DNA of 62,529 nucleotides, taken from Nitrospirota bacterium (GTDB lineage Bacteria > Nitrospirota > Thermodesulfovibrionia > Thermodesulfovibrionales > UBA9159). Below the pieces are notes generated by a model that was given only the letters and a program-made list of their open reading frames with translations, was not told the origin of the DNA and did no database searches. Of this stretch, positions 5,506 to 53,201 are shown in pieces. The stretch's first letter is position 1, and each line of letters begins with the position of its first letter. Location of the stretch: NCBI GenBank assembly GCA_037441365.1, contig JBBISG010000005.1, positions 1 to 62,529 on the forward strand, given 5' to 3'. A program made the translations under genes and the position numbers.

Positions 5506-7098
5506 ATGGGGAAGAGGATAGACATTTTAATCAGGGGTGCCATGGTATATGACGGCACAGGCAACGAGCCGATAGCGGCTGATATAGCTATAAAGGGTGA
5601 TAGGATAGCAGCACTCTTTAAACCTGGTGAATTTGGCGGAGATGCTGAAAGGGTAATAGAGGCAGAAGGTCTTTCTGTTGCGCCAGGCTTTATAGACACA
5701 CATTCCCATTCAGAATTCACACTGCTTGCTGATAGCCGTGCTGAGGGGAAGGTGCTTCAGGGTATAACAACCGAGGTCAATGGCAATTGCGGCCTGTCAG
5801 CAGCCCCTGTTTATGGCGATGCGCTAAGGCAGCGTGAGAAAGACCTTGAGGAGTTTTGTATAAAGGAGAGGTGGTCCACATTCAGGGAATATTTCCGTAT
5901 CCTCGAGGATAAAGGGATTGCGGTAAACTTTGCCACACTCGCAGGCCATGGAAATTTAAGGGCATCTGTGATTGGTTACGATAACAGGGCACCCAATGAG
6001 GCTGAGCTCAGAGATATGGTCAGACTGCTCAGGGAGGCCATCGGTGATGGCGCCATAGGTATCTCCACAGGATTGATATACCCCCCAGGGGTATATGCAA
6101 AGACAGAAGAGATCATCGAGCTTACAGGAAGTATCAGGGATTGTATATACACCAGCCATATCCGGAGTGAGGGTAGTGAATTGATAGAGGCCGTGGAGGA
6201 GACAATAAGGATAGGAAGGGAATCGGGGATTGCTATTCATGTATCCCACATAAAGACTGCTGGAAAGGCCAACTGGCACAAGATAGATCAGGCCATATCC
6301 CTTATAGAAGATGCAGCTCAGGAAGGCATCAGGGTGACCTGTGATAGATACCCCTATACCGCTGCATCTACAGACCTCGATGCGATACTGCCTTCATGGG
6401 CATATATCGGAGGTAATGAGGAAGAACTGAATAAACTCAACGACCCTCGCATCAGGGCAGCAATAAGGCATGAGGTTCTGTCACAGCATCCATCTGGTGA
6501 TTACTGGAGCAGCATTAAGATAGCCTCTGTAAATTCAGGACCCAACAAATGGATGGAGGGCAAAGACCTGTCTTATATCTCGGAGAGGGCAGGAAAGATG
6601 CCTGTTGACCTCTTTCTTGATCTCCTGATCGAGGAAAGGCTCAGGGTGAGTGCGATCTTTCACTCAATGTGTGAGGAAAACCTGCTACGATTCCTTTCAC
6701 TACCCTGTGTGATGGTAGGCTCTGACAGTTCAGCCCGCTCCTTTGATGGCCCAACCCATAAAGGAAAGCCTCATCCGAGGGGCTTCGGGAGCTTCCCAAG
6801 GTTCATAGGCATGTATGTGAGGGATAAGGGGTTGATGAATTTAAGCGAGGCGATCCGCAAAACAACAATGCTTCCTGCCATGACATTCGGACTGAAAGAT
6901 AGAGGCCAGATAAGGAATGGTTTTTTTGCTGATATAGTGATCTTTGATGATGAGAGGATTATTGACAGGGCAACCTTTGACGACCCCTTTGTCAAACCTG
7001 ACGGGGTTTGCTGTGTGCTTGTCAATGGCTCACTTGCTGTATGGGATGCAGCTCCAACGGGCATTATGGCGGGAAGGGTATTAAGACATGGAGGATAA
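5506..7098 (+). CDS. N-acyl-D-amino-acid deacylase (D-aminoacylase)
   Basis: PGFIDTHSHSE, GITTEVNGNCG, HIRSE, PHPRGFGSFPR. Confidence 0.92.
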   Translation: MGKRIDILIRGAMVYDGTGNEPIAADIAIKGDRIAALFKPGEFGGDAERVIEAEGLSVAPGFIDTHSHSEFTLLADSRAEGKVLQGITTEVNGNCGLSAAPVYGDALRQREKDLEEFCIKERWSTFREYFRILEDKGIAVNFATLAGHGNLRASVIGYDNRAPNEAELRDMVRLLREAIGDGAIGISTGLIYPPGVYAKTEEIIELTGSIRDCIYTSHIRSEGSELIEAVEETIRIGRESGIAIHVSHIKTAGKANWHKIDQAISLIEDAAQEGIRVTCDRYPYTAASTDLDAILPSWAYIGGNEEELNKLNDPRIRAAIRHEVLSQHPSGDYWSSIKIASVNSGPNKWMEGKDLSYISERAGKMPVDLFLDLLIEERLRVSAIFHSMCEENLLRFLSLPCVMVGSDSSARSFDGPTHKGKPHPRGFGSFPRFIGMYVRDKGLMNLSEAIRKTTMLPAMTFGLKDRGQIRNGFFADIVIFDDERIIDRATFDDPFVKPDGVCCVLVNGSLAVWDAAPTGIMAGRVLRHGG

Positions 7099-26464: not shown

Positions 26465-27424
26465 TTATATATCCTTATCTGCTTTAGCGCCTTCTTTCCT
26501 CCTGTCCTTTACCACCACGCTACCCGGGGTCATCTTGGCCAGCCTTTTTAGTTCTGCTGCAATATCAGAGACCTCTCCGACGTGCCTTATCTCCCTGTGT
26601 GTATTACTCACAACCGCGATCGATATGGACATGAGCGGAAACATGTTTTGCCTCCCCTGACGGTCAAATCCCTCTATAAAACCCTTCTCTCTCGCCTCCT
26701 TATCGTAGAAGTATGGGATGACCCTATCAAATGTCTCTGTGATTCTGTTGCAGATGGGGTCGACCTTCTCAGGCGTTGTTACAAGGATGAAGTCATCACC
26801 TCCTATATGACCGAGGAAGTCGTCACTGTTACCGAGGTCTTTTATCGCTTCCATAATGATCTGGGCTGTCAGCTTTATTACCCTGTCACCTTTAAAGAAC
26901 CCGTAGGTGTCGTTATATGCCTTGAAGTTATCGAGATCGCAGTAGCACGCCGCAAAAGGGGATCCCTTCTTTATCCTTTCTGATATAGCCTTCTCTATAG
27001 AGACATTACCAGGCAGTCTTGTGGTCGGGCTTGCGCTGTATCCCTCATCAGTCCGCTCAAGGAGCATCTCCACCCTTGCGCTGAATTCCAGAGGAGAAAA
27101 TGGTTTGGTTATATAATCAGAGGCGCCGAGGATGAGGCCTTTGGCCTTTTCCTCTGCCTTTTCGATGGCTGAAAGGAGGATCACAGGGATAGACCTGGTT
27201 CTTAAATCCCCCTTCAGCTCACCCAGTATCTTGAAACCATCGATGTCAGGCAGTATTATGTCGAGGATGATAAGGTCAGGCATCTCCCTATTTATTATTT
27301 TCATTGCCTCTGTGCCGCTCCTCGCCTCCAGCACCGCATATCCGAGATTCTCCACAACCCTTTTGCTCTGTCTCAGGGTGATCTCATCATCGTCTACAAT
27401 AAGGAGCCTTTTCCCCTTTTTCAT
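26465..27424 (-). CDS. Response regulator diguanylate cyclase (REC-GGDEF)
   Basis: IVDDD, LIILD, DLDNFKAYND, GGDDF. Confidence 0.9.
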   Translation of the reverse strand: MKKGKRLLIVDDDEITLRQSKRVVENLGYAVLEARSGTEAMKIINREMPDLIILDIILPDIDGFKILGELKGDLRTRSIPVILLSAIEKAEEKAKGLILGASDYITKPFSPLEFSARVEMLLERTDEGYSASPTTRLPGNVSIEKAISERIKKGSPFAACYCDLDNFKAYNDTYGFFKGDRVIKLTAQIIMEAIKDLGNSDDFLGHIGGDDFILVTTPEKVDPICNRITETFDRVIPYFYDKEAREKGFIEGFDRQGRQNMFPLMSISIAVVSNTHREIRHVGEVSDIAAELKRLAKMTPGSVVVKDRRKEGAKADKDI

Positions 27425-37804: not shown

Positions 37805-38771
37805 GATCATATCTACAGGCTCTTACGCTCCTGAGAAGGTCCTCACAAACCTTGACCTCGAAAGGATGGTCGATACATCAGACGAATGGATCACCGAAAG
37901 GACCGGAATAAAGGAACGAAGAATCGCAAATGAAAACCAGGCAGCCTCGGACCTGGCCTATGAGGCATCGAAGGCAGCCCTTAAGAGCGCTGCCCTGAAG
38001 GCAAAAGATATCGATCTTATAATAGTCGCCACAGTGACAGGTGATATGCCAGTGCCATCGACTGCATGCATCCTGCAGGACAGGTTGGGTGCCAAAAGGG
38101 CAGCAGCCTTTGACATTAATGCCGCCTGCTCGGGGTTCATCTATGGCCTCTCCATTGCTGATGGCTTTATAAAGAGTAAGGCCTGCAGGAGGGTGCTTGT
38201 GATAGGTTCTGAGACCCTCTCCAAGTTTACAGACTGGAAGGACAGAACTACATGCGTATTATTCGGTGATGGAGCAGGCGCTGCGATACTCGATGCAACA
38301 GAGGAGGATAGGGGGATAATATCCACAAAGATTCATTCTGATGGCAGCCTGTGGGACCTGCTTCATATCCCGGGCGGCGGTTCAAGGCATCCTGCCTCTG
38401 GCGAGACAGTCAAAAAGAGACTCCACTCTGTAAAGATGAGGGGCAATGAGACATTCAAAGTAGCTGTAAGAACCCTTGAAGGCCTTGTTGTAGAAACCCT
38501 CGAGGAGAATAAGATAAAACCTTCACAACTTTCTCTTCTGATACCTCATCAGGCAAATCTAAGAATCATACAGGCAACAGCAAAGAGGCTGAATCTCCCT
38601 ATGGAAAGGGTGCTTGTAAATCTCGATAGATACGGCAATACATCTGCTGCATCAATCCCAATAGCCCTCGATGAGGCTGTGAGGACAGGAAGGGTCAGGG
38701 ATGGCGATTACATACTTCTTGAGGCATTTGGCGGTGGGCTCACATGGGCCTCTGCACTGATAAAGTGGTAG
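37791..38771 (+). CDS. fabH: 3-oxoacyl-ACP synthase III
   Basis: AACSGF, PHQAN, GNTSAAS. Confidence 0.97.
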   Translation: MIRSKIISTGSYAPEKVLTNLDLERMVDTSDEWITERTGIKERRIANENQAASDLAYEASKAALKSAALKAKDIDLIIVATVTGDMPVPSTACILQDRLGAKRAAAFDINAACSGFIYGLSIADGFIKSKACRRVLVIGSETLSKFTDWKDRTTCVLFGDGAGAAILDATEEDRGIISTKIHSDGSLWDLLHIPGGGSRHPASGETVKKRLHSVKMRGNETFKVAVRTLEGLVVETLEENKIKPSQLSLLIPHQANLRIIQATAKRLNLPMERVLVNLDRYGNTSAASIPIALDEAVRTGRVRDGDYILLEAFGGGLTWASALIKW

Positions 38772-40914
38772 TAGTAGGCTCTGTATCCAGAACTCTCCTC
38801 ACAACGGAAAGTAGATAAATGCCCTCAAAGGGCTTTCTGATGAAGGCGTCTATGTCTTTATTCTTCTTTCCTATGTTGTATATCTCATAACCGGAGATTG
38901 CGATTATCCTGGTAGAGGGCTTGGTCTTCTTGAAAAAACCGATCAGCTCCATGCCATTAACAAGAGGCATCACTATGTCTGTTATAACAAGGTCTATCTC
39001 AGCAGAAATCTCCTTGAATATCTCTTGGGCATACACCGGGTTGTCCGCAGCCAGGACCCTGTAACCCTGAGATTCGAGGACGCTCCTTATAAAGCTCAAT
39101 AAATCAGGCTCATCTTCTACCACCAATATCATTTCTCTTCCTGCCATTGTGTAATTAGCAGGTTTCTCAAATTTGGGAACTGTCCTGTCAGTGGCAGGCA
39201 GATAGATCTCAAAGGTTGTCCCCTTGCCCACTTCTGTTTTCAGGTTAATCGCACCATTGTGTGCCTTAACAATCCCGTAGACGATGGAAAGACCCAATCC
39301 TGTTCCTTTCCCGTGTTCCTTTGTCGTAAAGAAGGGGTCAAATATCCGCATTCTTATCTCATCGGGGATACCGGTTCCCGTATCAGATATCTCAAGGACT
39401 GCATACCTGCCTGGTTTCAGCAACGCATGGATGCTGGATGCCTCTTGTTTTAACTCTACAAGTGATGTCCTGATGGTTATGGTGCCTCCATCTGGCATGG
39501 CATCAGCAGCATTCACAAAGAGATTCATGATCACCTGTTCTATCTGGTTAGCATCGCTGAAAATAACCGGTGGTGGGCCTTCGCTGATCTCTGCCTTTAT
39601 CTCGATGTTCTTCTTAGTCATTATCCGCGCTGTGAGTTCAAGGGTATCCCTTATGACATCATTAAGATTAATTGGTACGGCTTCATGGTCTCCTCTGCGG
39701 ATAAAGCTCAGAATCTTTGAAACCATCTGGCCTGCCTTTCGCGCTGAATTTTCAATCGTCTTTACCTTCTGCTTTGCATCGGCCTCCAGATTGCCGAACT
39801 CGCTCAGCAGCTCAACATTGCCGAGGATTGATGATAGTATGTTGTTAAAGTCATGGGCGATGCCGCTGGCAAGCATCCCTATCGATTCCATCTTCTGCGA
39901 CTGGAATAACTGCTCCTGAAGTCTCTTCTTCTCGGTAATATCCCTGTGGAGTGACTGGATGTATAACTCACCGTCGATCTCTATCGCCTTTGAGCTCACC
40001 TCGAGAGAAATCTTGCTCCTGTCATTTCTGTAGTGCTGGGTCTCGAAGATAAGGGCCTCGCCATTTAAGATTCTGTTCATCCGCTCTTCCTTTTCCTTAT
40101 AGTCACCTGCCTCTAAGAGTCTGATGGGTGTTCCGAGCAATGCATTCTTTTCAAAACCATGGAGTTCACAGAACTTCATGTTAGCATCAACTATCGTTCC
40201 TTCTCTATTAAGAACAGCAACGCCATCATTCGAGTTGTCAAAAAGGGCAGTGTATTTCTGGTTCGAGATGGTGAGATCCTTCGTCCGTTGTGCCACCAAA
40301 TCTTCAAGCTGTGTGGAGTAGATTTTAAGTTTTTCCTTTTCCTGAGAAAGGTCATATTCGAGAGAGAGCTTGTTGATGAAAAGCGTATCGTTGTAATATC
40401 TCCAGGCAATGCCAATAAGAGCTGTAGTTAAAAGAAAAATATTATTGTTTATAAAAACTTGAACATTGCTGATGCTGTCAAAAATTAATATCGGCACCAA
40501 ATAAATAGAGTATATCATAATGGCCATAATTATAGTGTTTTTAACATTAAAAAGAGGGAGGAAGCCGAGGCAAAACATAAAGATAATAATTATACCAGCG
40601 TAATATATAGATTGATGACCGCCAAATGACAATATCATCAACTCGACCATTACTGAAACAACCGTGGCGCCTGAAAAATAGATGCCAATTTGAAAATATT
40701 TACTTTTTTTTAATTTGTTTAATAAATATATAATCATGAATAGAGAAGCTGTTATTAACCTGTATGCGAGGAATTTACGGAAATTTTCTGGAGTTACGAA
40801 ATAATCTAATACGCTCAATGAAATAATGACAAAAGCTCCAGCAATAAGAGCAAATGACGCCCAAGATCTAAGTAACGATAAAACCTCTTGTTCTATATAG
40901 CTCTTTTTATCCAT
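38740..40914 (-). CDS. Hybrid sensor kinase: 5-6 TM sensor, PAS, HisKA, HATPase, REC
   Basis: Hydrophobic N-terminus, QSQKMESIG..AHDFNN, GTGLGL, DLVITD; its 3' end overlaps the fabH 3' end by 32 bp. Confidence 0.92.
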   Translation of the reverse strand: MDKKSYIEQEVLSLLRSWASFALIAGAFVIISLSVLDYFVTPENFRKFLAYRLITASLFMIIYLLNKLKKSKYFQIGIYFSGATVVSVMVELMILSFGGHQSIYYAGIIIIFMFCLGFLPLFNVKNTIIMAIMIYSIYLVPILIFDSISNVQVFINNNIFLLTTALIGIAWRYYNDTLFINKLSLEYDLSQEKEKLKIYSTQLEDLVAQRTKDLTISNQKYTALFDNSNDGVAVLNREGTIVDANMKFCELHGFEKNALLGTPIRLLEAGDYKEKEERMNRILNGEALIFETQHYRNDRSKISLEVSSKAIEIDGELYIQSLHRDITEKKRLQEQLFQSQKMESIGMLASGIAHDFNNILSSILGNVELLSEFGNLEADAKQKVKTIENSARKAGQMVSKILSFIRRGDHEAVPINLNDVIRDTLELTARIMTKKNIEIKAEISEGPPPVIFSDANQIEQVIMNLFVNAADAMPDGGTITIRTSLVELKQEASSIHALLKPGRYAVLEISDTGTGIPDEIRMRIFDPFFTTKEHGKGTGLGLSIVYGIVKAHNGAINLKTEVGKGTTFEIYLPATDRTVPKFEKPANYTMAGREMILVVEDEPDLLSFIRSVLESQGYRVLAADNPVYAQEIFKEISAEIDLVITDIVMPLVNGMELIGFFKKTKPSTRIIAISGYEIYNIGKKNKDIDAFIRKPFEGIYLLSVVRRVLDTEPTTTTLSVQRPM

Positions 40915-40928
40915 GTTTAAACATTATA

Positions 40929-41783
40929 TCACTTTTTACATAAAAAGCGACTGTATCTAAGATAGTCATAATGCGTTCCGATCATAACTTTAAAGTAACG
41001 AATTGTCTTATAAAAGTATTCCTCCGAAGCTCCTTTCAGATACACCTTAGACATCTGAAGTTCGCGTAATCGTGCATGAAGGCCCCGATCTACTATATCA
41101 GTTGTATCTTCACAATGAAGCACAGTAAACCCTGCCTCTTCTAATAATTGTTTAGTTTCCGCAATATTGTTTTGAAACCATACACCTTCTGCGTAGGTGC
41201 CTGGGAAGTCACCACCGGCATCGTTAAGATCTCCCTTATCACCTCTTGCCCAGTCATGAAAGCCCATAATTCCGCCTTTTTTAAGTACTTTGTATAATTC
41301 TGCTAAAGCAAGTTTTTTATCCATCCAATGACAGATTGTTTCATTGTGGAAGATCTTATCAAATGTTTCTTCGGTAAAGTCCAGATTGTGAACGTCTTTA
41401 ATCTTTCTTTCTATTAAGTGATCTACGCCTTCAAGGTGGTCGCAGTTAATTGCTTTTTTTATCTGGTCTGGATTAATATCGAAACCTATAATCTTACAAC
41501 CACATAACTTAGCAATAAGTCTTGTCGGAGCGCCGTTTCCACAGCCAGCGTCTAATACTAAATCACCCTTAACAATACTCATCATTTTTATTAATTTAAT
41601 AACTTCTGCCTGAGTATGATGGGAAAGGCTTTCCGTATCGAAGACCCTTCTATCTATACTCTTTGGGTCTACGCCAAAAGCGTTATACATTCTTTGTAGT
41701 TCCTCTGCGTTATAAACTGGAAAACCTTTATTTTCGGAGAAACTTTTTATTATATTTTCTGTCACTCTTTGTTTATCAAGCAT
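40929..41783 (-). CDS. Class I SAM-dependent methyltransferase
   Basis: VLDAGCGNG, GFDIN, KVLKKGG; AT-rich. Confidence 0.85.
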   Translation of the reverse strand: MLDKQRVTENIIKSFSENKGFPVYNAEELQRMYNAFGVDPKSIDRRVFDTESLSHHTQAEVIKLIKMMSIVKGDLVLDAGCGNGAPTRLIAKLCGCKIIGFDINPDQIKKAINCDHLEGVDHLIERKIKDVHNLDFTEETFDKIFHNETICHWMDKKLALAELYKVLKKGGIMGFHDWARGDKGDLNDAGGDFPGTYAEGVWFQNNIAETKQLLEEAGFTVLHCEDTTDIVDRGLHARLRELQMSKVYLKGASEEYFYKTIRYFKVMIGTHYDYLRYSRFLCKK

Positions 41784-42012
41784 TTTTATTTAACCCCGGC
41801 TTATAATGCTGCTCGCATATAAGCACTTTCATCCCTGCCTTTGCGAGATAACACCCGCAGACAAGGCCTTTCAGATATTTCTCTAATGCCTGCTGTAGAT
41901 GAAAAGCAGCGCCTTCTGCATCATCATTTGCAAGAAGTATCTCCGATCGCCTCATGTCAAGGCCAGCTTTATGAAACCAGTCTCTTGGCAGAGGAGATTC
42001 TCTTTTTTTCAT
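41776..42012 (-). pseudogene. Truncated HEPN toxin fused to a fragment of a phytoene-dehydrogenase-like FAD oxidoreductase
   Basis: DWFHKA...AAFHLQQALEKYLKG (HEPN N-half) joined to GLVCGCYLAKAGMKVLICEQHYKPG (Rossmann fragment). Confidence 0.7.
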
Positions 42013-42338
42013 AAAGGACTTTTCCTTTGTTTGTAATCTCAACAAAAAAATCATCCCCTATCTGCAAACGACTTGTCAGCTCCTCAGGGGTTACAACTAA
42101 AGATGAAAAGGGTATTTTTTTTCCTTATATCTGACACTATTCTCCGCACTGCTACACGTCTATCTATAGGCCTGTCCTTCGTCTCCTTTATTATCAAAAG
42201 GTCAATGTCAGTTTCTTTGTTAGGCATGCCATAAGCATAAGAGCCATAGAGAATAATCTTATCAGGCAAGTACATTTTTTTAAGTCTCTCAACCATGCGT
42301 GAGATTACCTTAGCTATATACTCATCTCTCTTCTTCAT
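42000..42338 (-). pseudogene. Minimal nucleotidyltransferase (MNT antitoxin), frameshifted
   Basis: YGSYAYG...DIDLL. An A8 run (42115-42122) shifts the frame; removing one A restores VTPEEL...GKVLYE. Confidence 0.75.
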
Positions 42339-42421
42339 AGCGGCACGACAGCCTCCTTTTTTAAAAACAGTATATCACAATATCACAGAGTAGTAGTATT
42401 TTCCCGTCTTCTTCCAAAACA

Positions 42422-42715
42422 CTATGCTGTAGCATCAAATAGGAACCCAGCTCCTTTTAAATGGATAGCGAGCATATTCCTCGCAGCTTGCTGCGGGGTC
42501 AAGCTATCATCAATCCTTTTGTTGGTGTCGTCAATTCTCTTATTAGTCTCATCGATGCGTCTGCTATGGTCGATCAGACGGGCATTAATATCATCAAGCC
42601 TTTTGTTAGTTAGATGGAGCATCGCCTTAATCTCTACATTCTCCGCCCTTATCTAATCAAATTCAGGGACAACGATCTCCTGGATTATCTTTTTAATGGT
42701 TTCAGCAATTTCCAT
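42422..42715 (-). pseudogene. Coiled-coil repeat protein with in-frame stop and truncated end
   Basis: MEIAETIKKIIQEIVVPEFD*IRAEN...RIDETNKRIDDTNKRIDD; TAG at 42653-42655. Confidence 0.65.
42479..42498. repeat. IS200/IS605-end-like GC palindrome
   Basis: CCTCGCAGC-TT-GCTGCGGGG at the truncation point of the pseudogene. Confidence 0.45.
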
Positions 42716-42770
42716 ACAATTTCCATATAGCCATTTTCTGATGTCAGAATAACAAACAACTAAGGCTATG

Positions 42771-43985
42771 TCAAGGTGAGCCAGTGAACTTTTTCACCAC
42801 CAGGCAAGCATTGTTGCCTCCAAAGGCATACGAATTATTCAGGGCAATATTAACAATGTGTTGCCTTGCCTTGTTCGGGACGCAGTCAATATCGCATTCA
42901 GGGTCAGGGGTTTCAAAATTTATAGTCGGCGGGATAATATCATTTTTTACTGTCAGGGCACAGGCAATCGCCTCGAGGGCTGAGGCTGCGCCCATTGTAT
43001 GGCCGAGCATAGATTTTATTGAACTCACAGGTATTTTCCTATAAAGAGGGCCAAAGACCTCTTTGATTGCCGAACATTCGTTTTTATCGTTTGTCGGCGT
43101 TCCTGTTCCATGGGCAGAGATATAGTCAACATCCTCGGGTCCTATCCCTGCCTCTGTCATTGCCTTTCTCATACAGCTTACAATCCCTTCTACAGAGGAG
43201 CTTGTCATATGATGGGCATCGCAACTCAGACCATAGCCGAGGACCTCTGCATATATTGGAGCATTACGTCTGAGGGCACTCTCAAGAGTTTCGAGAATGA
43301 CTATTCCTGCTCCTTCAGCCACCATCATGCCTTTTCTGTTCTTATCAAATGGTTGGCACTTCTCTGGAGCAACGGCCTTGAATTGATTAAAGCCTGTAAA
43401 AGAGATCCTCGAAAATGGGTCAGAGGCGCCAGCAAGAACTCTCTCTGCAAGTCCGGCTGTTATCAGGTCAAATCCATATCCGATAGCATAATTGCCTGCT
43501 GCACAGGCTGTAGAAAAACTATAAGTTGGTCCCTTAATATTAAATTCATTTGAAATCGCTGCAGATGTGGAATGGACAGGGAGTTGACAGATCAAGTTTG
43601 TGCTGACATCTTCATTCCTGACGAGTTTATCATCGATATATTCAATTACCTGAATTGAGCCTGATGTAAGACCTATGCAGGTCCCTGTTTTTAAATCAGA
43701 AAGCTCTTTTAATGTTAATCCAGCATCCTCAACTGCAAGCCTTGCTGCTGCGAGGGCAAGCTGTGATGCCCTGCTCAGATAAGGAATGTAATTCTCTGTT
43801 ATAAATTCCTCTGGTCTGAAATCCTTTATCTCTCCTCCGTTATGTGTGAAGTGTTTTGATGTGTCAAAGGATGTGACAGGGCTTATGCCTGATCTGCCCC
43901 TAATCAGACTATCCCAGAATTCCCTCCATCCGATCCCGATGGATGAGACCACGCCAAGACCAGTTATGACGACCCTATTTTTCAT
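42771..43985 (-). CDS. fabF: Beta-ketoacyl-ACP synthase II-like (active KS)
   Basis: STACAAG (Cys), SAHGTGT, KSMLGH catalytic triad intact. Confidence 0.9.
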   Translation of the reverse strand: MKNRVVITGLGVVSSIGIGWREFWDSLIRGRSGISPVTSFDTSKHFTHNGGEIKDFRPEEFITENYIPYLSRASQLALAAARLAVEDAGLTLKELSDLKTGTCIGLTSGSIQVIEYIDDKLVRNEDVSTNLICQLPVHSTSAAISNEFNIKGPTYSFSTACAAGNYAIGYGFDLITAGLAERVLAGASDPFSRISFTGFNQFKAVAPEKCQPFDKNRKGMMVAEGAGIVILETLESALRRNAPIYAEVLGYGLSCDAHHMTSSSVEGIVSCMRKAMTEAGIGPEDVDYISAHGTGTPTNDKNECSAIKEVFGPLYRKIPVSSIKSMLGHTMGAASALEAIACALTVKNDIIPPTINFETPDPECDIDCVPNKARQHIVNIALNNSYAFGGNNACLVVKKFTGSP

Positions 43986-44436
43986 CCTTCATGCTGAATA
44001 CGAGTTCTGCCTCTGAGACTTTTCTTTCATCTACCGTGGCCTCAGCCGAGACAAAGGCACCGTTGGGCAGGCTCTTCACGTTAACAACCTTTATCCTTAA
44101 CTGATCACCTGGGAACACTGGATTTAAGAATCGTGCCTTTACAGAACCGAAATAATAGAGGGGTTTATTTTCAGTTTCTTCTTTCCCATATGCGAATAAT
44201 ACTATAGCGGTCTGAGCCATCGCCTCTATTATGGCTGCTCCAGGATAAACAGCCTTTTCTGGGAAATGGCCGAGGAAAATTATGTCATTGCCTGTGATGT
44301 TTTTTATGGCGATTGCATGACTGCCAGGCTCTATCTCAATGACCCTGTCAATCATGATGAAGGGAAATCGCTGTGGGATAAGCCTCTTGATTCCCTCAAA
44401 GTCTATAGTTATTTTATCCTCACTCATATCGTCCAA
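43975..44436 (-). CDS. fabZ: 3-hydroxyacyl-ACP dehydratase
   Basis: IPQRFPFIMID, GHFP...PGAAIIEAMAQ. Confidence 0.9.
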   Translation of the reverse strand: MDDMSEDKITIDFEGIKRLIPQRFPFIMIDRVIEIEPGSHAIAIKNITGNDIIFLGHFPEKAVYPGAAIIEAMAQTAIVLFAYGKEETENKPLYYFGSVKARFLNPVFPGDQLRIKVVNVKSLPNGAFVSAEATVDERKVSEAELVFSMKDEK

Positions 44437-45646
44437 TTATAATCGCTGCATTCTGACCATAAGGGTCTGCAGAAGTTATCAGTATATTTTTTATATCCTT
44501 CTTTCTTGGCACACCACTGACATAGTCAAGGTCACATTCTGGATCTCTTTCCTTGTAGTTAAGTGTGGGTGGTATAATGCATCTCTGAAGAACTCCAAGG
44601 GCAGCGGATAAGGAAAGGGCACCTGATGCTGAATAGGTCTCGCCTATCACGGACTTAATCGATGTCACAGGTATCCTGTATGCAAACTCTCCGAGGGCCT
44701 CCTTCAATGCCTTTGACTCTAACCTGTCAAGACCCCTTGTTGAATTGGCGCATGATATGACGCAATCTATCTCCTGAGGCATGATTAAGGCATCATTAAG
44801 GGCAATTTCGATCGCCTTTTTAAGACCCCTCCCATCATGATTGAATCCAATCTCGGCCTCAGGGTCAAAGGAATTCCCACAGCCCTTTAATACAGCAAGA
44901 ATATCAGCACCCCTTTCAATGGCATGGCCTTCTTCTTCAAGGATGATTACCCCGGCACTTTCTGAAAGAATTAGACCATTTCTCCTTGCATCAAAGGGAC
45001 AGCAGATGGGCTCTGAACCATCAATTCCTGATAGACAGCCAAGTTTATAAAAACCCATGAAGGTCTCCTCGCACAGCTCCTCAACACCTCCTGCAAGAAC
45101 GACCTTCGCCCGTTTCATTCTTATAAAATCTCCAGCATAGGATATTACATCGAGACTGGCACAGAACCCTGTAGAGATAGTCGTATTGAAGCCCTTGATA
45201 TAGAACCTTATTGATATCTGGCTTGCTGGAGAATTAATAACGGTATTCGGAAAGTGTGAGGGGTTTACAAATTTTGGTCCCTCAATAAGGCCGGTCCTAT
45301 CGAACTGTGAGATACTGTGAAGGCTGCCGAAGGTCGAGCCGATCGAGACGCCTGTTGAGTGAGTAGTATCTTCGTCAATAACAAGCCTGCTGTCATCAAT
45401 AGCCAGTCGGGCGGCAGAGCATACGAGTCTCGTGCTTCGATCGAGGTCTCTGAGGCCCTTCTTGCCGAGGAATTCAACAGGGTCGAAATCAACCTCTCCC
45501 CCGATATGAACCCTGAAAGGAGAGGTATCAAAGAGCGTTATCTCCCTGAAGCCGCTTTTGCCCATTGTCAGGGCCTCCCAGAAATTCTCCCTTCCTACCC
45601 CGATGGGCGAAAGGACGCCCATGCCTGTTATAACTATCCTCATCAT
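44420..45646 (-). CDS. Catalytically degenerate ketosynthase (chain-length-factor-like)
   Basis: KS fold with STGFCAS in place of STACAAG, SCANST in place of AHGTGT, and VIGE in place of LGH. Confidence 0.8.
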   Translation of the reverse strand: MMRIVITGMGVLSPIGVGRENFWEALTMGKSGFREITLFDTSPFRVHIGGEVDFDPVEFLGKKGLRDLDRSTRLVCSAARLAIDDSRLVIDEDTTHSTGVSIGSTFGSLHSISQFDRTGLIEGPKFVNPSHFPNTVINSPASQISIRFYIKGFNTTISTGFCASLDVISYAGDFIRMKRAKVVLAGGVEELCEETFMGFYKLGCLSGIDGSEPICCPFDARRNGLILSESAGVIILEEEGHAIERGADILAVLKGCGNSFDPEAEIGFNHDGRGLKKAIEIALNDALIMPQEIDCVISCANSTRGLDRLESKALKEALGEFAYRIPVTSIKSVIGETYSASGALSLSAALGVLQRCIIPPTLNYKERDPECDLDYVSGVPRKKDIKNILITSADPYGQNAAIIIGRYE

Positions 45647-46404
45647 TAACCTAAGAGACTCAATCCTCCATCAATCTCGATAGTCTGCCCTGTTAGATAC
45701 ATGGAATCCTCGCTGCAGAGGAACAATACAACCCTTGCTACCTCTTCGGGGCTTCCGAACCTTCCCACCGGGATTGTTTGAAGAAGTCTCTGCCTGTAAT
45801 CCTGATTCAGTTTCCCTGTCATGTCAGTATCAATGAAGCCAGGGGCGATGGCATTTACCCTTATGTTATATGGTGCAACCTCCTTTGCGAGGGCCTTTGT
45901 GAAACCTATTATGCCTGCCTTTGCAGCAGCGTAATTTGTCTGGCCAGGAAGTGGATGAAGCCCGCTTGAAGAGGAGATATTAACAATAATTCCGCTCTTC
46001 TGCTTCAGGAAGGTAATGATGCAAGATCGTGTCATATTAAATACACCTGTCAGATCTGTATCTATAACATCGGCCCATTCTCCCTTAGACATCATGAAGA
46101 GAGATTTGTCTTTCGTTATTCCTGCGTTGTTTATGACTATATCGAGCCTACCGAAGGCTCTCTTGACAGAATCGACAAAATCTCTTATACCTTCATAGTC
46201 ACGGACATCTACCTGTGCAGACATAACCTGCCTTCCCATAGCCTCTACTTCCATAGTAAGGGATTCAGCAAGGTCCTTCCTTGATGCATAGGTAAAGGCA
46301 CAGTCAGCCCCCTCCCTGCAAAGGGCAAGAGCAATTGCCCTTCCGATGCCCCTTGTCGCTCCTGTTACGATAGCTACCTTATCGAAAAGCAACCCCTTTT
46401 CCAT
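45646..46404 (-). CDS. fabG: 3-oxoacyl-ACP reductase
   Basis: TGATRGIG, NNAGITKD, YAAAK. Confidence 0.9.
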   Translation of the reverse strand: MEKGLLFDKVAIVTGATRGIGRAIALALCREGADCAFTYASRKDLAESLTMEVEAMGRQVMSAQVDVRDYEGIRDFVDSVKRAFGRLDIVINNAGITKDKSLFMMSKGEWADVIDTDLTGVFNMTRSCIITFLKQKSGIIVNISSSSGLHPLPGQTNYAAAKAGIIGFTKALAKEVAPYNIRVNAIAPGFIDTDMTGKLNQDYRQRLLQTIPVGRFGSPEEVARVVLFLCSEDSMYLTGQTIEIDGGLSLLG

Positions 46405-46426
46405 GATTGGTTAAGTATCTTATTTC

Positions 46427-46561
46427 TGTCATTCCCAATTTGATGGGAATCCAGTGCTTTATCCTATTTCCGGGTTCCTGCTTTCGCTCGAATGACAACT
46501 AACAGGATCCATTGTCGGGCAGATGCCTGCCCTACCAGTAGGACAGCCGAAACGGCTGTCC
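46427..46561. repeat. Cluster of REP-like palindromes
   Basis: TGTCATTCCC..GGGAATCCAG...GAATGACA element (46427-46497); GTCGGGCAG..CTGCCCTAC (46514-46535); GTAGGACAGCCG-AAA-CGGCTGTCC (46538-46561). Confidence 0.7.
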
Positions 46562-46578
46562 GAACTATCGCTACATGT

Positions 46579-47625
46579 TTACTTTGTTGCCGTATAGAAG
46601 ATTATCATTTCTGACCTGACACGGGTTACCGACAATGCACTATCAGGGATTCCAGCCTGTTTGAGCAATCTGTCGAAGTCATCCTTTGTTCGCTGCAGGA
46701 ATCCGTCCCAGTCAGCTATCCATTGGTATGGTTGAGGCTTGTAGTAATTTACATCCTTAAAGGCTGCTATGAGTTTTCCTCCGGGATTGAGCAGGGCATA
46801 CAGGGCATTCAGCAGCTTCACGAGGAAGTTATCAGGCAGGTAATCGAAGTAGCCCACGCTATAGATTACATCCTGCATGCCGAATTCCTCCATGTTCAGC
46901 TCGTGGTCGAACATCCTGAGGGCATTGTATTTAAGGAATTGAATATGGTCAGATGGAATATCGGTATATCCTAAACGGTTGAGGGCGAAATTCAGGGCAT
47001 CAGAGTCAAGGTCGATGCATGTAAACCTTGCGCCAGACTCTTCAATATCAGGGGCCAGTTCAAAAACCTCACGGCATGAACCACACGCTATATCGAGGAC
47101 CCTCGGGTTCTTCCTGTCAGCCAGCTCTTCTTCAAGCAGGTCCCTGAGTTTTGCTATCCTCTCCCTGACGCCGATTGCGAGTGGTGTGGAAAGCATATAT
47201 CTGTCCAGATAGTATCCTATGCCCTCTGATATAGGTGTGTTCCTGTATATGATCTCCAGGGTCTTATAATCCCCCTGATAACCCTGTGGCCATGTCCTTG
47301 CCCGGTTTATGCAATAGCTTTTAGACAGGATGGAATCTGTCTTTTCGCGGAATCTGACCCGGGCATCCTTTACGACCTGTTTATCAAGAACCCCTTGCTC
47401 GAATTCTTCAAAGACATCGGTCATCTCTGTAAAGGCTGCTACTATTGCATCTAAGAGTTCACCGGGATTCTCTGCAGGATCGGAACATCTCTTCTCGATC
47501 TCCTTTATTTGTTTGTTGAATCGTTCTGTTGCACTATCGAGTATTGTGATATATCTTTCTCTCTCCTCACCGACAAACAGAACATTTCCTTTGATCTCCT
47601 CATTCGGGTAGGTTAAGTTTTGCAT
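46579..47625 (-). CDS. PhcB-like SAM-dependent methyltransferase (3-hydroxy fatty acid methyl ester synthase family)
   Basis: RARTWPQGYQGDYKTLEIIY resembles the PhcB-family P.GY.GD motif; VLDIACGSCRE, IYSVGYFDYL, LNPGG; AAGGAGG RBS. Confidence 0.75.
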   Translation of the reverse strand: MQNLTYPNEEIKGNVLFVGEERERYITILDSATERFNKQIKEIEKRCSDPAENPGELLDAIVAAFTEMTDVFEEFEQGVLDKQVVKDARVRFREKTDSILSKSYCINRARTWPQGYQGDYKTLEIIYRNTPISEGIGYYLDRYMLSTPLAIGVRERIAKLRDLLEEELADRKNPRVLDIACGSCREVFELAPDIEESGARFTCIDLDSDALNFALNRLGYTDIPSDHIQFLKYNALRMFDHELNMEEFGMQDVIYSVGYFDYLPDNFLVKLLNALYALLNPGGKLIAAFKDVNYYKPQPYQWIADWDGFLQRTKDDFDRLLKQAGIPDSALSVTRVRSEMIIFYTATK

Positions 47626-47826
47626 GGGTCCTCCTTTAAGGCTTGTCTTGTTTTAGCTTTAATGAATGGTATGCCTGCCTGGCTTATCAGGCCGGACAAC
47701 ATAGTTTTTGAAAAGCTAATCCCTAATGGATCCTCCCTGTAGATCCCAAACACCGAGCCCTGCAGATATCTTGCAGAACCTACTGCCCCCTCACCTCCTT
47801 TCGTTGTATTTATTGTATCTTACCAA

Positions 47827-47855
47827 ATTAAAGCACGATATGTTGTGCCTGTCAA
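47827..47855 (-). promoter_or_regulatory. Sigma70-type promoter for the phcB-like operon
   Basis: TTGACA-17 bp-TTTAAT on the minus strand; the spacer contains a GCAC-N8-GTGC dyad. Confidence 0.6.
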
Positions 47856-47865
47856 TGGTTTTTCT

Positions 47866-49347
47866 TCATCCTGCAAGTTCCTGTTCCAACCACCTCGTGG
47901 GAAGGATGAGTCGGAAGGTGCTTCCTCTTTCCACTTCGCTTTCAACAATAATGTCGCCTTTATGTTCCTCTACGATCTGTTTTACCAGTGGTAGACCCAT
48001 ACCTATTCTGTGCCTTTTTGTGCTGTAGAAGAGGCTGAATATCTTCGATATGTCTTCCTTTGGAATGCCTTTGCCGGTGTCGGTTACACTGATGATCACA
48101 CGATCCTGGTCAGAAGCTGTCAATATTGTTATCGTGCCCTCAGGAGGTGTTGCTTCTATTGCATTCTTAATCACATGGAGTATGGCAACTCGCAGGAGTT
48201 GTCTGTTTGCCACAAATCTCAGGGGGGATTCAGAGAGTTTTACAGAAAGGTTAATATTTTTTCCTCTCCTCTCGCTTTCAATCAAAGGTAGAACACTCTG
48301 GACTATCTCGTTCATATCCTCAACCCTGAACATGATCTGTCTGTTTTTCAGGATTGTCTCGTAATCCCTGACGATGGAATCGAGCTTCTGTGCTTCGATC
48401 AGCAGGTCTGTCATTCTCTCCTTAAGGGGTTCTGATATAGCCTCTTTTTTGAGGATGCGGTTGAATGTCCCTGCTATTGCTGTTACAGGATTCCTGACAC
48501 GGTCTGCCACGCTGAGGGCTATTAAGTTCAGCGTCCTCTCTGCACATATCGATTCCATATCGCGGTTCAGGTTCATAAGCTCGAGGTTTATTTCCTCGAT
48601 CCTCTTCCTATCAGAGTCTATCCGGTTGTAAAGCCCTGTAAAACGCATATCTATTATGAGAAAGATAATGCCGAATAGTAACGTGTAGATTCCGATGAAT
48701 ACTGCCACAACCTTTCTCGATGCAGCAAGGGGCATACCGATAGGTATATATACAAATTTAGCATCTACTAACTCACCGATCTTTCTATCAAAACCTGCTG
48801 TCGGGCCGTATCTCTCTACCAGTTCCTTGGGGGCCACAGCAGGGCTGCCGTGGCATGACAGACAATCAGCGGTGAAGGATTCGCCTGCCCTTGCAATCAC
48901 ATAATACTCTCCATCAGGTCTTGTCCTGAATCCCCGCCACTCCTTTAATTCCCTGTTCCCTATAAAGGTATCTATAATCCTTGACTCGAATTCATCGGCA
49001 GCATTAGCCGGATTTCTCGGACTTAATGATGCATTTTTATACACATAACCGGGCTGCTCTTTCTGAACCCTGCGGGCGATATCACCTGCCACATAAGACC
49101 TCGACATCCCCTCAAGGATGAATCTACCCGGCATCTCCTTGTACAGTGTTGGTCTAAGTTCCTCAGCAACATAGTGCTTTATGGCTTCTATTGTCGATAG
49201 ATGAAGCCTCCCTGCATCATAGGCATCTCTAACAGCATTGTCCTTCAAGATGATATAAGTGAGAGTGGATATAATCGGGAGGGATATGGCATAGATGGCG
49301 ATCAGCATCAGGCCAAATTTTCTTTTTGGACTGAGATTTTTAAACAT
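47866..49347 (-). CDS. Sensor kinase-like protein with periplasmic heme-c (DUF3365/Tll0287-like) domain
   Basis: Two TM helices, PRNPANAADEFE, CLSCH; HATPase motifs DTGKGI and GMGL; H-box reads ADRVRNP. ATG 49347 preferred. Confidence 0.85.
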   Translation of the reverse strand: MFKNLSPKRKFGLMLIAIYAISLPIISTLTYIILKDNAVRDAYDAGRLHLSTIEAIKHYVAEELRPTLYKEMPGRFILEGMSRSYVAGDIARRVQKEQPGYVYKNASLSPRNPANAADEFESRIIDTFIGNRELKEWRGFRTRPDGEYYVIARAGESFTADCLSCHGSPAVAPKELVERYGPTAGFDRKIGELVDAKFVYIPIGMPLAASRKVVAVFIGIYTLLFGIIFLIIDMRFTGLYNRIDSDRKRIEEINLELMNLNRDMESICAERTLNLIALSVADRVRNPVTAIAGTFNRILKKEAISEPLKERMTDLLIEAQKLDSIVRDYETILKNRQIMFRVEDMNEIVQSVLPLIESERRGKNINLSVKLSESPLRFVANRQLLRVAILHVIKNAIEATPPEGTITILTASDQDRVIISVTDTGKGIPKEDISKIFSLFYSTKRHRIGMGLPLVKQIVEEHKGDIIVESEVERGSTFRLILPTRWLEQELAG

Positions 49348-49355
49348 CTTATTTC

Positions 49356-50036
49356 CTATGTTACGCTGTCTTTCTGTTTCACCCTTTTCGCCTTCTTCCG
49401 TCTGTATTCTATGATATGCCATTTTCTGAGCATCCTCTCGATCTTATCCCTGTATGCCATGGCAATAAAGACCACTATTATCGCGATTCCCACGAGTATA
49501 GAGAATCTCCCATATTGATGGTGCCTTATGTAACTGCCGCCAAGGGTCAGGAGAATAGTGCCGAAGAGCCTTCCCGTGCCTCCGATTACGATGAATTCGG
49601 TGGTCGAGAGGTGTCCAAGGCCGAGGATATAACAGAGATAATCCTTGGGGAATCCTGGTATAAGAAATAAAAGGAAGATCAAGAATGCACCTTTATGATG
49701 GAGAAGGTAATCGAATCGTTTCAGTGTCTTTTTATCCACAATCCTATCCACAAAGGGTCTTCCGAATGCCCTTGAAAGGGCAAAGGCTATGTAAGAACCT
49801 GTTGTGAGACCTATGGTAGAGAGCACCACACCTAAAAGCGGGCCGTAAAGAAAACCACCAAGCAAACCTGTAACCTCCCCGGGTATGGGAGCTGCAACCA
49901 CCTGTATGGTCTGCAGGAGTATGAAACCTATGAATGACAACGGCCCCAGGGTATCGAGGAAATGGAGGAGGCGTTTTTTATCGAGAAAGAAACGGACTAA
50001 ACCAGTCTCATAGAGTATCAGTGTTAGGCCTCCCAC
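49356..50036 (-). CDS. TVP38/TMEM64 (DedA superfamily) membrane protein
   Basis: QVVAAPIPGE, LIPGFPKDYLCY; frame is open to about 50117, so the true start may be non-canonical (ATT 50099). Confidence 0.85.
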   Translation of the reverse strand: MGGLTLILYETGLVRFFLDKKRLLHFLDTLGPLSFIGFILLQTIQVVAAPIPGEVTGLLGGFLYGPLLGVVLSTIGLTTGSYIAFALSRAFGRPFVDRIVDKKTLKRFDYLLHHKGAFLIFLLFLIPGFPKDYLCYILGLGHLSTTEFIVIGGTGRLFGTILLTLGGSYIRHHQYGRFSILVGIAIIVVFIAMAYRDKIERMLRKWHIIEYRRKKAKRVKQKDSVT

Positions 50037-52280: not shown

Positions 52281-53201
52281 CTATGACTTCCTTCTGTCCA
52301 TCTTGTAGCAACTCCCTTTGAATTTTTTGGCATATCTCTTCATCTCTGTTGCTATCTCGCTCGCCTGGCCATAATGAGAAAACCCCCTATATTTATTATG
52401 GGCAACCCCGATGGAAAGCGTAAGCAAAGGGAATCTTTTTTTGTTGCCCTCCCTGTCTATCGACTCTATAAAGCCCCTTTCTCTATCGCCTGAATCGTAA
52501 AAACTCGGAATTATGTCGTCAAAATTTGCCATCAGTTCTTTGCATACGGCCTCTGCGCTGTCTGCAGAAACAATGAAAACAAAATCATCACCACCGATAT
52601 GTCCCACAAAACCATCAGCTGGGGATAATATCTTTATGATATTGGTAATAAGTCTGCCGGTCATCCTTATCACTTCATCACCCCTCGAAAAACCATAGCT
52701 ATCATTAAATGGTTTAAAATAGTCAATATCCGTGTATGCAAGGGCAAAGACAGAGTTAGAGTCGATTCTCCGCTGTATCTCCTTGATGATTGTCACATTG
52801 CCGGGCAGCATTGTTAATGGATTAATCTCGAGGGCCTTCTTTGCACGGGTTATGCACAGGTCTATCCTGAATGCCAGATCACTGCTGTCAAAAGGGGTTT
52901 TGATGTAGTCATCGATGACTGTATCGAGATGAAATTCCTTCAGGACTTCTGTATCATCAATGACAGCCATGACAGGTAGATGACCGAATAATGGGTCAGA
53001 CTTTATGGCGGATGTTATCTTTGCAGCATCTTCACTAATAACATCAGCACTGAGCACGATCAGGTCAGGGGTTGTGGTGAAACAAAAATCGAACAGGTGA
53101 TTGACCCTGTCCAGACTGACTGTACCGTACCTATCCATGAGGCTATCAGCGATCTTCATCCTCATGGTGCTGTCGTTGCTGATCAACAGGATTGTCTTCA
53201 T
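52281..53201 (-). CDS. Pseudo-receiver-GGDEF diguanylate cyclase
   Basis: DIDYFKPFND, GGDDF; receiver domain lacks the acidic pocket and phospho-Asp (ISND, LIVLS). Confidence 0.85.
   Translation of the reverse strand: MKTILLISNDSTMRMKIADSLMDRYGTVSLDRVNHLFDFCFTTTPDLIVLSADVISEDAAKITSAIKSDPLFGHLPVMAVIDDTEVLKEFHLDTVIDDYIKTPFDSSDLAFRIDLCITRAKKALEINPLTMLPGNVTIIKEIQRRIDSNSVFALAYTDIDYFKPFNDSYGFSRGDEVIRMTGRLITNIIKILSPADGFVGHIGGDDFVFIVSADSAEAVCKELMANFDDIIPSFYDSGDRERGFIESIDREGNKKRFPLLTLSIGVAHNKYRGFSHYGQASEIATEMKRYAKKFKGSCYKMDRRKS

Follow-up and report, generated by a model that had tools for sequence, protein, structure and literature searches.

A conserved operon of Nitrospirota with a PhcB-like methyltransferase, an acyl-building module and a membrane hybrid kinase points to a possible lipid-type signal

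We analysed a stretch of 62,529 nucleotides from a Nitrospirota bacterium of the order Thermodesulfovibrionales (positions 1 to 62,529 of contig JBBISG010000005.1, assembly GCA_037441365.1); this whole stretch is called the window below. Its minus strand carries, between positions 38740 and 47625, a run of genes beginning with a candidate methyltransferase, MT1, and ending with a hybrid histidine kinase. Judging by homology, the locus belongs to a conserved unit whose first gene encodes a PhcB-like MT1 and whose last gene encodes a MASE8-type membrane hybrid kinase. In most of the Thermodesulfovibrionales loci sampled, a small type II fatty acid synthase (FAS)/polyketide synthase (PKS) module lies between the two. 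Found in Nitrospirota of hot springs and the subsurface, the operon suggests a lipid-type signal, not described before, together with its sensor. The interpretation that we prefer, with a probability of about 0.5, is that the module makes a short-chain acyl product, which would be methylated by MT1 and sensed by the co-transcribed kinase. The genes of the unit in the window are the following.

46579..47625, minus strand: MT1, class I S-adenosylmethionine (SAM)-dependent methyltransferase with a helical lid, PhcB-like family, short form (348 aa; Pfam Methyltransf_12/25/20)
45646..46404, minus strand: FabG, of the 3-oxoacyl-acyl carrier protein (ACP) reductase type (TIGR01830, 302.4 bits, cut-off 297.75)
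44420..45646, minus strand: chain-length factor (CLF), a triad-less ketosynthase homologue and the presumed partner of the ketosynthase (KS), from the alignment with KS
43975..44436, minus strand: FabZ, a dehydratase of the anammox (amxFabZ) kind, from the closest solved structures
42771..43985, minus strand: KS, an active-type ketosynthase (Cys-His-His present)
40929..41783, minus strand: MT2, a second class I methyltransferase (Methyltransf_11; CMAS 39 bits)
38740..40914, minus strand: hybrid histidine kinase of 724 aa, last gene of the run (PAS, HisKA, HATPase and REC by Pfam)
about 40360-40914, minus strand: sensor part of the kinase, MASE8-like, with five transmembrane (TM) segments (Pfam and hydropathy)

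The order of transcription is MT1, FabG, CLF, FabZ, KS, a region of gene debris, MT2, kinase. The FabG, CLF, FabZ and KS genes overlap or abut, and the gap between MT2 and the kinase gene is 14 nt. The original prediction, made from the DNA letters alone, had described this run, and every gene named in it was found on the minus strand at its place. The decayed genes that it mentioned are real, with nucleotidyltransferase, HEPN and flavoprotein fragments identified by Pfam, NCBIfam and tblastn, and its multi-TM hybrid kinase has five hydrophobic segments (residues 13-148, by hydropathy) in addition to the PAS, HisKA, HATPase and REC domains. The gene arrangement of the window is covered by contigs of two subsurface runs from one study, one of which may be where this DNA comes from; since contigs of the second run cover it as well, it is not an assembly artefact. 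The sequencing runs listed as holding such DNA included none of RNA. Nor is the grouping a matter of chance, since the order MT1-(FabG)-CLF-(FabZ)-KS-ACP-(flavoprotein)-kinase recurs in dozens of genomes and metagenome contigs.

The MT1 family has 3629 members in a representative protein library at E <=0.001, and 211 at E <=1e-30. The closest homologues with a named organism belong to Thermodesulfovibrionales and other Nitrospirota. Among the 120 best homologues, 32 carry JGI names, which are 'EF 3-hydroxypalmitic acid methyl ester biosynthesis protein' in 15 cases and 'SAM-dependent methyltransferase' in the remaining 17. MT1 lacks an N-terminal PilZ domain, as do some of its relatives; many others carry one, and the PilZ domains of these long-form relatives have RxxxR and D/NxSxxG-like motifs. 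Fusions with cyclic nucleotide monophosphate (cNMP)-binding domains also occur among the Atlas look-alikes of MT1. In the AlphaFold model of MT1 (predicted local distance difference test score, pLDDT, 93.8) a Rossmann methyltransferase is placed beneath a long helical lid. The best fold matches of this model found by Foldseek are SgvM, an unnamed Bordetella protein (3ocj), the CurJ C-methyltransferase and Rv2258c, and this result is generic. A sequence search of PDB with MT1 gave no matches, and NCBIfam yielded no model matching PhcB for MT1. The member names of the clusters for ten long-form representatives were uninformative, and the Atlas names were generic.

For comparison with Phc-type signalling we used an operon on a Paraburkholderia graminis plasmid, reached by tblastn of MT1 against plasmids. 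It encodes, in this order, a 468-aa methyltransferase, a 445-aa kinase, and response regulators of 134 and 344 aa. The order agrees with that given for phcB (RSc2735), phcS (RSc2736) and phcQ (RSc2738) in the available part of the Ralstonia study (PMC6989110). The same part of that study describes Arg22 as conserved in the PhcB homologues of Ralstonia, Cupriavidus and Paraburkholderia (PMC6989110), and the methyltransferase of the plasmid operon indeed has an arginine at position 22. The operon is termed Phc-like here, since the record itself gives no Phc name.

The profile of the MT1 family (31 rows) matches the Paraburkholderia methyltransferase over 270 columns (hhalign, 99.8%, E 1.6e-27), from the lid motif KP(R/L)GY(P/A)GDY through the C-terminus. 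In BLASTP comparisons with the same protein, MT1 has 25% identity over 232 aa (E 3e-14), and a long-form relative 27% over 268 aa (E 4e-21). Together with the JGI names, the profile match supports a relation of MT1 to the PhcB kind, as claimed in the original prediction. The kinase cores of the window and the Paraburkholderia operon are 30% identical (E 2e-30). Residues 15-209 of the window kinase, that is, its sensor, align with residues 16-214 of the Paraburkholderia kinase at 24% identity over 200 aa (E 7e-11). The Smith-Waterman score of this sensor pair is 133, compared to 35.3 +/- 6.1 in 300 shuffles (z 16), and two other membrane proteins of the window used as controls gave z of -0.9 and 0.8. 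When scanned alone, the first 190 residues of the window kinase match Pfam MASE8 with 27.2 bits (cut-off 26.2); the match of the Paraburkholderia sensor to MASE8 is weak (17.6 bits). Since MT1 and the sensor each match their Paraburkholderia counterpart, both the methyltransferase and the kinase are of the Phc-like kind: the alignments show MT1 and the kinase sensor domain to be homologous to the methyltransferase and kinase of the Phc-like operon.

Compared through this operon with the Phc system of Ralstonia (phcB, phcS, phcR, phcQ), the Nitrospirota unit has the same methyltransferase lid and catalytic domain, and a kinase with a homologous multi-TM sensor directly after the methyltransferase; in 12 related loci the methyltransferase-kinase pair stands without KS and CLF, as in the Phc-like operon. 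On the other hand, the Nitrospirota kinase is of the hybrid type and has PAS and REC domains, the unit contains no linked regulators and has its own REC within the kinase, most Nitrospirota loci place a KS/CLF/ACP module between the methyltransferase and the kinase, and a PilZ domain is present on many MT1 homologues. PhcB takes general fatty-acid intermediates as its source, and to our knowledge Phc-type signalling is known only from Ralstonia and its kin. In the diffusible signal factor (DSF; RpfF/RpfC) and cholerae autoinducer-1 (CAI-1; CqsA/CqsS) systems, a gene for a lipid-signal synthase is also situated beside that of a multi-TM hybrid kinase. However, the present unit has neither a crotonase (RpfF) nor a pyridoxal phosphate-dependent acyl transferase (CqsA), and its sensor family is MASE8-like; domain scans of the window locus and its relatives detected no crotonase domain in the unit. 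On the Paraburkholderia plasmid, a gene of the cyclopropane-fatty-acyl-phospholipid synthase family (L216:3418-4440; CMAS 228 bits) is located ~1 kb 5' of the Phc-like methyltransferase gene, which may be chance. MT2 passes CMAS too, weakly, as listed above.

MT1 homologues were found in 59 of the 151 genomes sampled from the order, representing 36 of 79 genera. Across 20 neighbourhoods taken from these genomes the order MT1-(FabG)-CLF-(FabZ)-(MT2)-KS-x-kinase recurs, where x in the relatives is an ACP of 77-87 aa and a CrtI-family flavoprotein of ~470 aa. The best solved relative of the latter is CrtI 4dgk (64 bits), and its match to TIGR02734 (142 bits) is below the cut-off. The order of the unit persists where the NfeD/SPFH and plsX/fabH context is lost.

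Two samples of loci were then considered. Species-representative genomes were scanned with an 11-row MT1 alignment, which replaced there the 31-row alignment, too diverse for a genome scan. The best 80 of at least 559 loci were taken, and 43 of them have at least 9 kb 3' of MT1. A kinase homologue follows MT1 on the same strand in 39 of these 43 loci. Both KS and CLF are present in 29 loci, accompanied by ACP (28), flavoprotein (25), FabZ (23), FabG (13), MT2 (3) and the kinase (26). One locus holds just one of KS and CLF. Both are missing from the other 13. All but one of these have the kinase after MT1, at a distance of 17-172 nt in 11 loci and of 1192 nt in the twelfth (L097). The second sample, seeded with KS, consists of the best 80 of at least 557 relatives in metagenome contigs. 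MT1 and CLF lie 5' of KS in all 24 loci with room upstream, and the 19 loci with room downstream contain the kinase in 18 cases, ACP in 19 and the flavoprotein in 15. The linkage of the kinase to the other genes, which the original prediction had seen in one genome, is thus preserved in other genomes in both samples. As the loci are kin, these counts describe one clade and not independent events.

The ends of the unit are MT1 and the kinase. No conserved gene was found 5' of MT1, where at most six of the 39 loci in other contexts share one, or 3' of the kinase, where the genes are convergent or unrelated housekeeping ones. Neighbourhood searches for a response regulator, or any other gene, conserved next to the unit found none, and this idea was rejected. 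The Tll0287-like kinase gene adjoins MT1 only in L034, L038 and L046/L098, that is, in the window's own family. An MT2 homologue is located inside the cluster in 3 of the 29 MT1-seeded loci with KS and CLF and in 4 of the 80 KS-seeded loci; the cluster includes MT2 only occasionally, as an accessory gene. Mutual exclusion of MT2 and the flavoprotein was considered and rejected, as L079, L142, L187 and L208 hold both. Two tandem copies of the hybrid kinase gene occur after the flavoprotein gene at L146:10929-15233 and L114:6772-11067. Duplicated modules are suggested for L071 and L077, where the same 20 kb hold additional, more distant matches to KS, CLF and ACP. At L034:11329-12550 (G148), the CLF match is split between two reading frames, pointing to either a frameshift or an error of sequencing.

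The kinase sensor and MT1 have a history of their own. Thirty-six related loci and the window were typed by gene content before tree building, and the kinases were then aligned; the trees are quick ones, constructed without mixture models. The kinase core and REC of the window are 63-66% identical to those of L098, L038 and L034, but the sensor only 39-48%. Conversely, the window sensor is 60-64% identical to the sensors of L060, L071 and L056, 59% to that of L066 and 57% to that of L058, and the kinase cores of these five loci are only 43-50% identical to the core of the window. By these identities, the window and its closest kin differ in the type of their sensor domain. A clade uniting the window with L098, L038 and L034 is rejected by the sensor data (p-value of the approximately unbiased test, p-AU, 4.4e-96). 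The sensor tree unites the 12 kinases of the KS/CLF-free loci in one clade (SH-aLRT 89.6, one change), which is rejected by the kinase-core data (four changes, log-likelihood difference, delta lnL, 167.5, p-AU 4.8e-87). The MT1s of the same 12 loci also form one clade in the MT1 tree (99.7), and the MT1 of the window falls there with the L056/L060/L071 group and L034, apart from L098 and L038. In these trees MT1 and the sensor domain are shown to share a history that the kinase core rejects. A break at the boundary of sensor and core, both deep in the tree and between the near-identical strains described below, is what a matched pair of synthase and receptor would predict. A dependence of sensor type on the presence of MT2 versus the flavoprotein was also considered and rejected, as the window and L066 fall elsewhere in the tree.

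The ketosynthase module resembles that of anammox bacteria. KS retains the Cys-His-His triad (TACAAG, HGTGT, GHTMGAAS), and all three triad residues are missing from CLF, which in the alignment with KS has F, then CANST and GETYSAS. The best solved relative of KS is 9s5h_B (amxFabF2; 486 bits); it is followed by 6kxd_A (353 bits), which we take to be the ishigamide KS Iga11 from the legend to Fig. 1e of the anammox preprint, and by FabF entries with at most 318 bits. The best solved relative of CLF is 9s5h_C (amxFabFmut), with 364 bits compared to 242 bits for the next one. For FabZ, the five amxFabZ entries take the first five places among the solved relatives. According to the available part of the preprint, 9s5h is the amxFabF2/amxFabFmut heterodimer of Brocadia fulgida (bioRxiv 10.64898/2026.05.19.726425).

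Residues F132 and V136 of CLF align with the tunnel motif DFPNTV of 9s5h_C and, given an assumed offset of one, would be Phe135 and Val139 of the anammox chain; the available part of the anammox study reports mutating these residues to change the chain-length preference (bioRxiv 10.64898/2026.05.19.726425). FabZ has an isoleucine at the position of amxFabZ Ile69, where the canonical residue is Gly (alignment to 7qv0_A, with a one-residue offset set by His48), and leucines in place of the canonical Lys/Arg at positions 96 and 115; the basic ACP patch is lost. A tunnel-blocking Ile69 and the loss of the basic patch are given as marks of amxFabZ in the available part of an earlier paper (PMC10139942). 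By these alignments, the Ile69 equivalent in FabZ and the F/V tunnel residues in CLF point to a short-chain product.

Cluster I of anammox bacteria (KustE3603-3608) comprises amxACP, amxFabZ, amxFabF2, amxFabFmut, a phytoene-dehydrogenase homologue and a B12 radical SAM enzyme (bioRxiv 10.64898/2026.05.19.726425), and the available parts of two anammox papers describe it as unique or exclusive to producers of ladderanes (bioRxiv 10.64898/2026.05.19.726425; PMC10139942). Among solved structures, KS, CLF and FabZ of the window are closest to the proteins of this cluster, with the Ile69 mark of FabZ and the CLF tunnel residues present, and relatives of the window locus hold five of the six gene types in one run. 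The Nitrospirota loci differ in the addition of MT1, often FabG, and the kinase, and in the lack of the radical SAM enzyme: no cobalamin-dependent one was found among the open reading frames (ORFs) of the window locus or the scanned ORFs of its relatives. We know of no report of ladderanes in Nitrospirota.

The unit is also similar to the highly reducing type II PKS of ishigamide (Iga), in which KS and CLF are combined with ketoreductase, dehydratase and ACP in a cluster without enoyl reductase, and whose presumed KS, 6kxd_A, is the second-best solved relative of the window KS. On the other hand, the window unit has no amide-forming or aromatic tailoring genes, and it shows the short-chain marks and the constant methyltransferase and kinase partners. 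KS-CLF pairs of Nitrospirae and Planctomycetes were catalogued in 2023 as an uncharacterised clade, as stated in the available part of that study (PMC10132072). A literature search of a limited collection found no papers linking KS-CLF pairs to a PhcB-like gene or a kinase, and a full-text literature search for phcB in Nitrospirota, or for PhcB with PilZ, returned nothing relevant.

The copy in the window is a reduced allele of the unit: the flavoprotein and the linked ACP are gone, and MT2 is gained. The debris and the adjoining gene on the other side of MT1 are as follows.

41784..42770, minus strand: debris between KS and MT2, ~1 kb (Pfam and NCBIfam)
part of the debris, minus strand: 66-aa ORF with no family match
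42084-42338, minus strand: part of the debris, MntA-like nucleotidyltransferase fragment, 84 aa
41776-42054, minus strand: part of the debris, 92-aa ORF, HEPN fragment fused to the flavoprotein remnant (remnant 41794-41874)
47866..49422, minus strand: Tll0287-like sensor kinase 5' of MT1, outside the conserved unit (Pfam)

Tblastn with the flavoprotein of the relatives detected only its residues 17-43 (27 codons) in the window, and no second flavoprotein gene was found in the assembly. No ACP was found in the window locus. The assembly contains one free-standing ACP (contig C6, 7152-7400), which is 65-72% identical to the cluster ACPs of the relatives. Its best match is the cluster ACP in all five relatives (57-73%), whereas their housekeeping AcpP, encoded beside the housekeeping FabG, is only 36-39% identical to it. 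Since the C6 protein is nearest to the cluster ACP of the relatives and far from AcpP, the dedicated ACP has moved. In its present place (G000:C6:3774-7400, L215) the ACP gene lies 5' of genes for a HEAT-repeat protein and an 874-aa fusion of AMP-binding, PP-binding and PlsC-type acyltransferase domains (Aas-like). In the source assembly (66 contigs, 91% complete), no FabG-like gene was found besides the cluster FabG. This is explained by the absence from the assembly of the housekeeping fabG-acpP pair, which probably lies in the unassembled part. A housekeeping FabG is encoded elsewhere in all five relatives searched (328-348 bits), and the three relatives with a cluster FabG (302-312 bits) hold both copies.

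A hot-spring strain was seen in two runs from two studies, which may be one data set, as their contigs are equally long. From KS to MT1 it has 62 differences from the window in 5119 bases (98.8% identity). In place of window positions 41869-42506 it has 144 letters, and in place of 40372-41793, that is, MT2 and the first 181 codons of the kinase, it has 1833 letters; MT2 is absent from this allele. Judging from typical lengths in the relatives, the 1833-letter stretch would fit the rest of an intact flavoprotein gene and a sensor domain. MT2 of the window matches the DVU_1556 family with 74 bits, below the cut-off of 155. Small mobile or toxin-antitoxin-like genes (DUF559 endonuclease-like, GIY-YIG, UPF0150) are situated between cluster genes at L038:4355-4738, 6516-6803 and L046:14715-15290; the site of the MntA/HEPN fragments in the window is the same kind of place and looks like an insertion hot spot. 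On the whole, the interpretation in the original prediction is partly supported, namely as regards the Phc-like homology of methyltransferase and kinase and their linkage; it missed the anammox kind of the module, the lost flavoprotein and ACP, and the accessory nature of MT2.

The DNA around the run is ordinary chromosome. Past the kinase there are rpmF, plsX and fabH, convergent with it, and beyond MT1 there are the Tll0287-type kinase, DedA/VTT, SPFH and NfeD genes. A promoter and terminator scan gave no excess over shuffles (19 vs 22.3 and 9 vs 9.7). Two proteins of the receiver-GGDEF type are encoded in the window at 26465-27424 and 52281-53201, which may be set beside the PilZ domains of MT1 relatives; such proteins are not conserved beside the unit in the loci searched. 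A 149-aa ORF at 61554-62003 matches the C-terminal part of the TsoB model (rhodanese/DsbD fusion-like selenoprotein) with 61 bits, the cut-off being 805.

The function of the unit could be as follows. The KS/CLF heterodimer, FabG and FabZ would build a short hydroxy- or enoyl-acyl chain on the dedicated ACP, which for the unit of the window would be supplied from contig C6; the analogy with the anammox enzymes suggests a chain of about C6-C8. The CrtI-like flavoprotein would desaturate the chain in the relatives, and MT2 would sometimes modify it. MT1 would methylate the product, most simply at the carboxyl group as PhcB does; this position is suggested by analogy with PhcB. The result would be a neutral, membrane-permeant small lipid, sensed by the MASE8 transmembrane domain of the co-transcribed kinase, which would relay phosphate via its own receiver domain to unlinked partners. 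Cyclic di-GMP (c-di-GMP) may gate the synthesis in loci whose MT1 has a PilZ domain. A broader proposal is that lipid quorum sensing in anaerobic Nitrospirota and some neighbours has a new and widespread family of systems, represented by these loci, in which a c-di-GMP-gated PhcB-like methyltransferase with its own KS/CLF line makes a short-chain acyl methyl compound, and the synthase genes and the kinase sensor are exchanged together between strains as specificity cassettes (pherotypes), the window strain and the 98.8% identical hot-spring strain being an example. As a whole this proposal is tentative, and we would sooner expect it to fail than to hold.

Several observations weigh against a methylated short-chain signal sensed by the kinase. 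The comparison was made with Paraburkholderia proteins and not with Ralstonia PhcB and PhcS, the operon used carries no Phc annotation, and it has a middle regulator of only 134 aa. No response regulator or histidine phosphotransfer (Hpt) protein is linked to the unit, unlike phcR and phcQ, and the unit contains no thioesterase or other release enzyme. The fold matches of MT1 are C-methyltransferases first (SgvM, CurJ), followed by other natural-product methyltransferases; since C-methyltransferases lead, formation of an O-methyl ester is not supported by the structure. Co-inheritance of MT1 and the sensor could be caused by physical linkage alone, as they are neighbours. Only three of the five MT2 loci cluster by sensor, and as this group was named after seeing the tree, it counts little. 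Finally, with the ACP unlinked and the flavoprotein lost, the local copy may be impaired.

One alternative is that the unit produces a specialised membrane lipid or metabolite for the cell itself, the kinase sensing the membrane state or product feedback in place of a cell-to-cell signal. The combination of KS, CLF, FabZ, ACP and flavoprotein is of the kind proposed for anammox ladderane membrane lipids; the membrane-related neighbours NfeD, SPFH and DedA/VTT, as well as plsX-fabH, are present in the window's family and several others; the cluster-type ACP on contig C6 sits before an acyl-ACP synthetase/acyltransferase fusion; and we know of no ligand for MASE-type domains. However, the NfeD/SPFH/plsX context is gone in other families where the order from MT1 to the kinase is kept, and 12 loci retain just MT1 and the kinase. 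The enzyme marks indicate chains too short for bilayer lipids, and the methyltransferase and the sensor are both homologous to the Phc-like pair. We consider a lipid for own use possible, but rather unlikely. Still less probable is that the copy in the window is a decaying, non-functional remnant, as might be thought from a flavoprotein reduced to 27 codons, the inserted toxin-antitoxin fragments and the lack of ACP in the locus, given that related KS/CLF loci contain ACP in 28 and flavoprotein in 25 of 29 cases. Against this, the frames of MT1, FabG, CLF, FabZ, KS, MT2 and the kinase are all open over their full length and their motifs are intact, contig C6 still holds the cluster-type ACP, the same allele is present in the second run, and MT2 and ACP without flavoprotein also occur in L064 and L080 (2 of the 29 long MT1-seeded loci) and in L034. 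Decay of the window copy is in any case compatible both with a signal and with a lipid for own use.

The other two alternatives concern the substrate of MT1. It could be BioC-like and methylate malonyl-ACP, the primer being extended by KS/CLF to a dicarboxylate monoester, for example to pimelate for biotin. A methyltransferase beside KS, FabG and FabZ does recall the BioC route and the fatty-acid-like genes of Desulfovibrio bio operons, and MT2 matches BioC weakly (44 bits; the cut-offs are 185 and 342). However, MT1 itself has no BioC match in the NCBIfam scan, no bio gene was found among the scanned window ORFs (26465-62003), the 12 loci with MT1 and the kinase have no KS, and a constant kinase partner is unexpected for a cofactor route, all of which makes a BioC-like role very improbable. 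Even less credible is that MT1 is a protein methyltransferase acting on the kinase in a CheR-like adaptation. The adjacency of MT1 and the kinase is constant, and relatives of MT1 have weak matches to the CheR SAM domain (18.8-20.5 bits, under the cut-off of 27). On the other hand, the best fold matches of MT1 are small-molecule methyltransferases with a helical lid, with no CheR entries among the matches shown, to rank 50. Moreover, since an ACP-based synthase is inserted between MT1 and the kinase, a small molecule is a far more likely substrate than the kinase.

If the broader proposal of a new quorum-sensing family holds, the FAS module known as the ladderane Cluster I of anammox bacteria would not be special to ladderanes: it would be derived from, or common to, a general short-chain acyl-building module. 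The close relatives of five of the six Cluster I gene types, found in Nitrospirota beside a methyltransferase and a kinase, give the anammox field a new handle and a comparison set of radical-SAM-free clusters from hot-spring and subsurface genomes. With their differing histories, the sensor domain and the kinase core offer a testable case of co-exchange of receptor and synthase. Finally, at a scale of at least 559 genome stretches and at least 557 metagenome stretches, a homologous methyltransferase-kinase pair in hundreds of uncultured anaerobes would greatly widen the Phc signal class and would add to it a dedicated acyl-building line.

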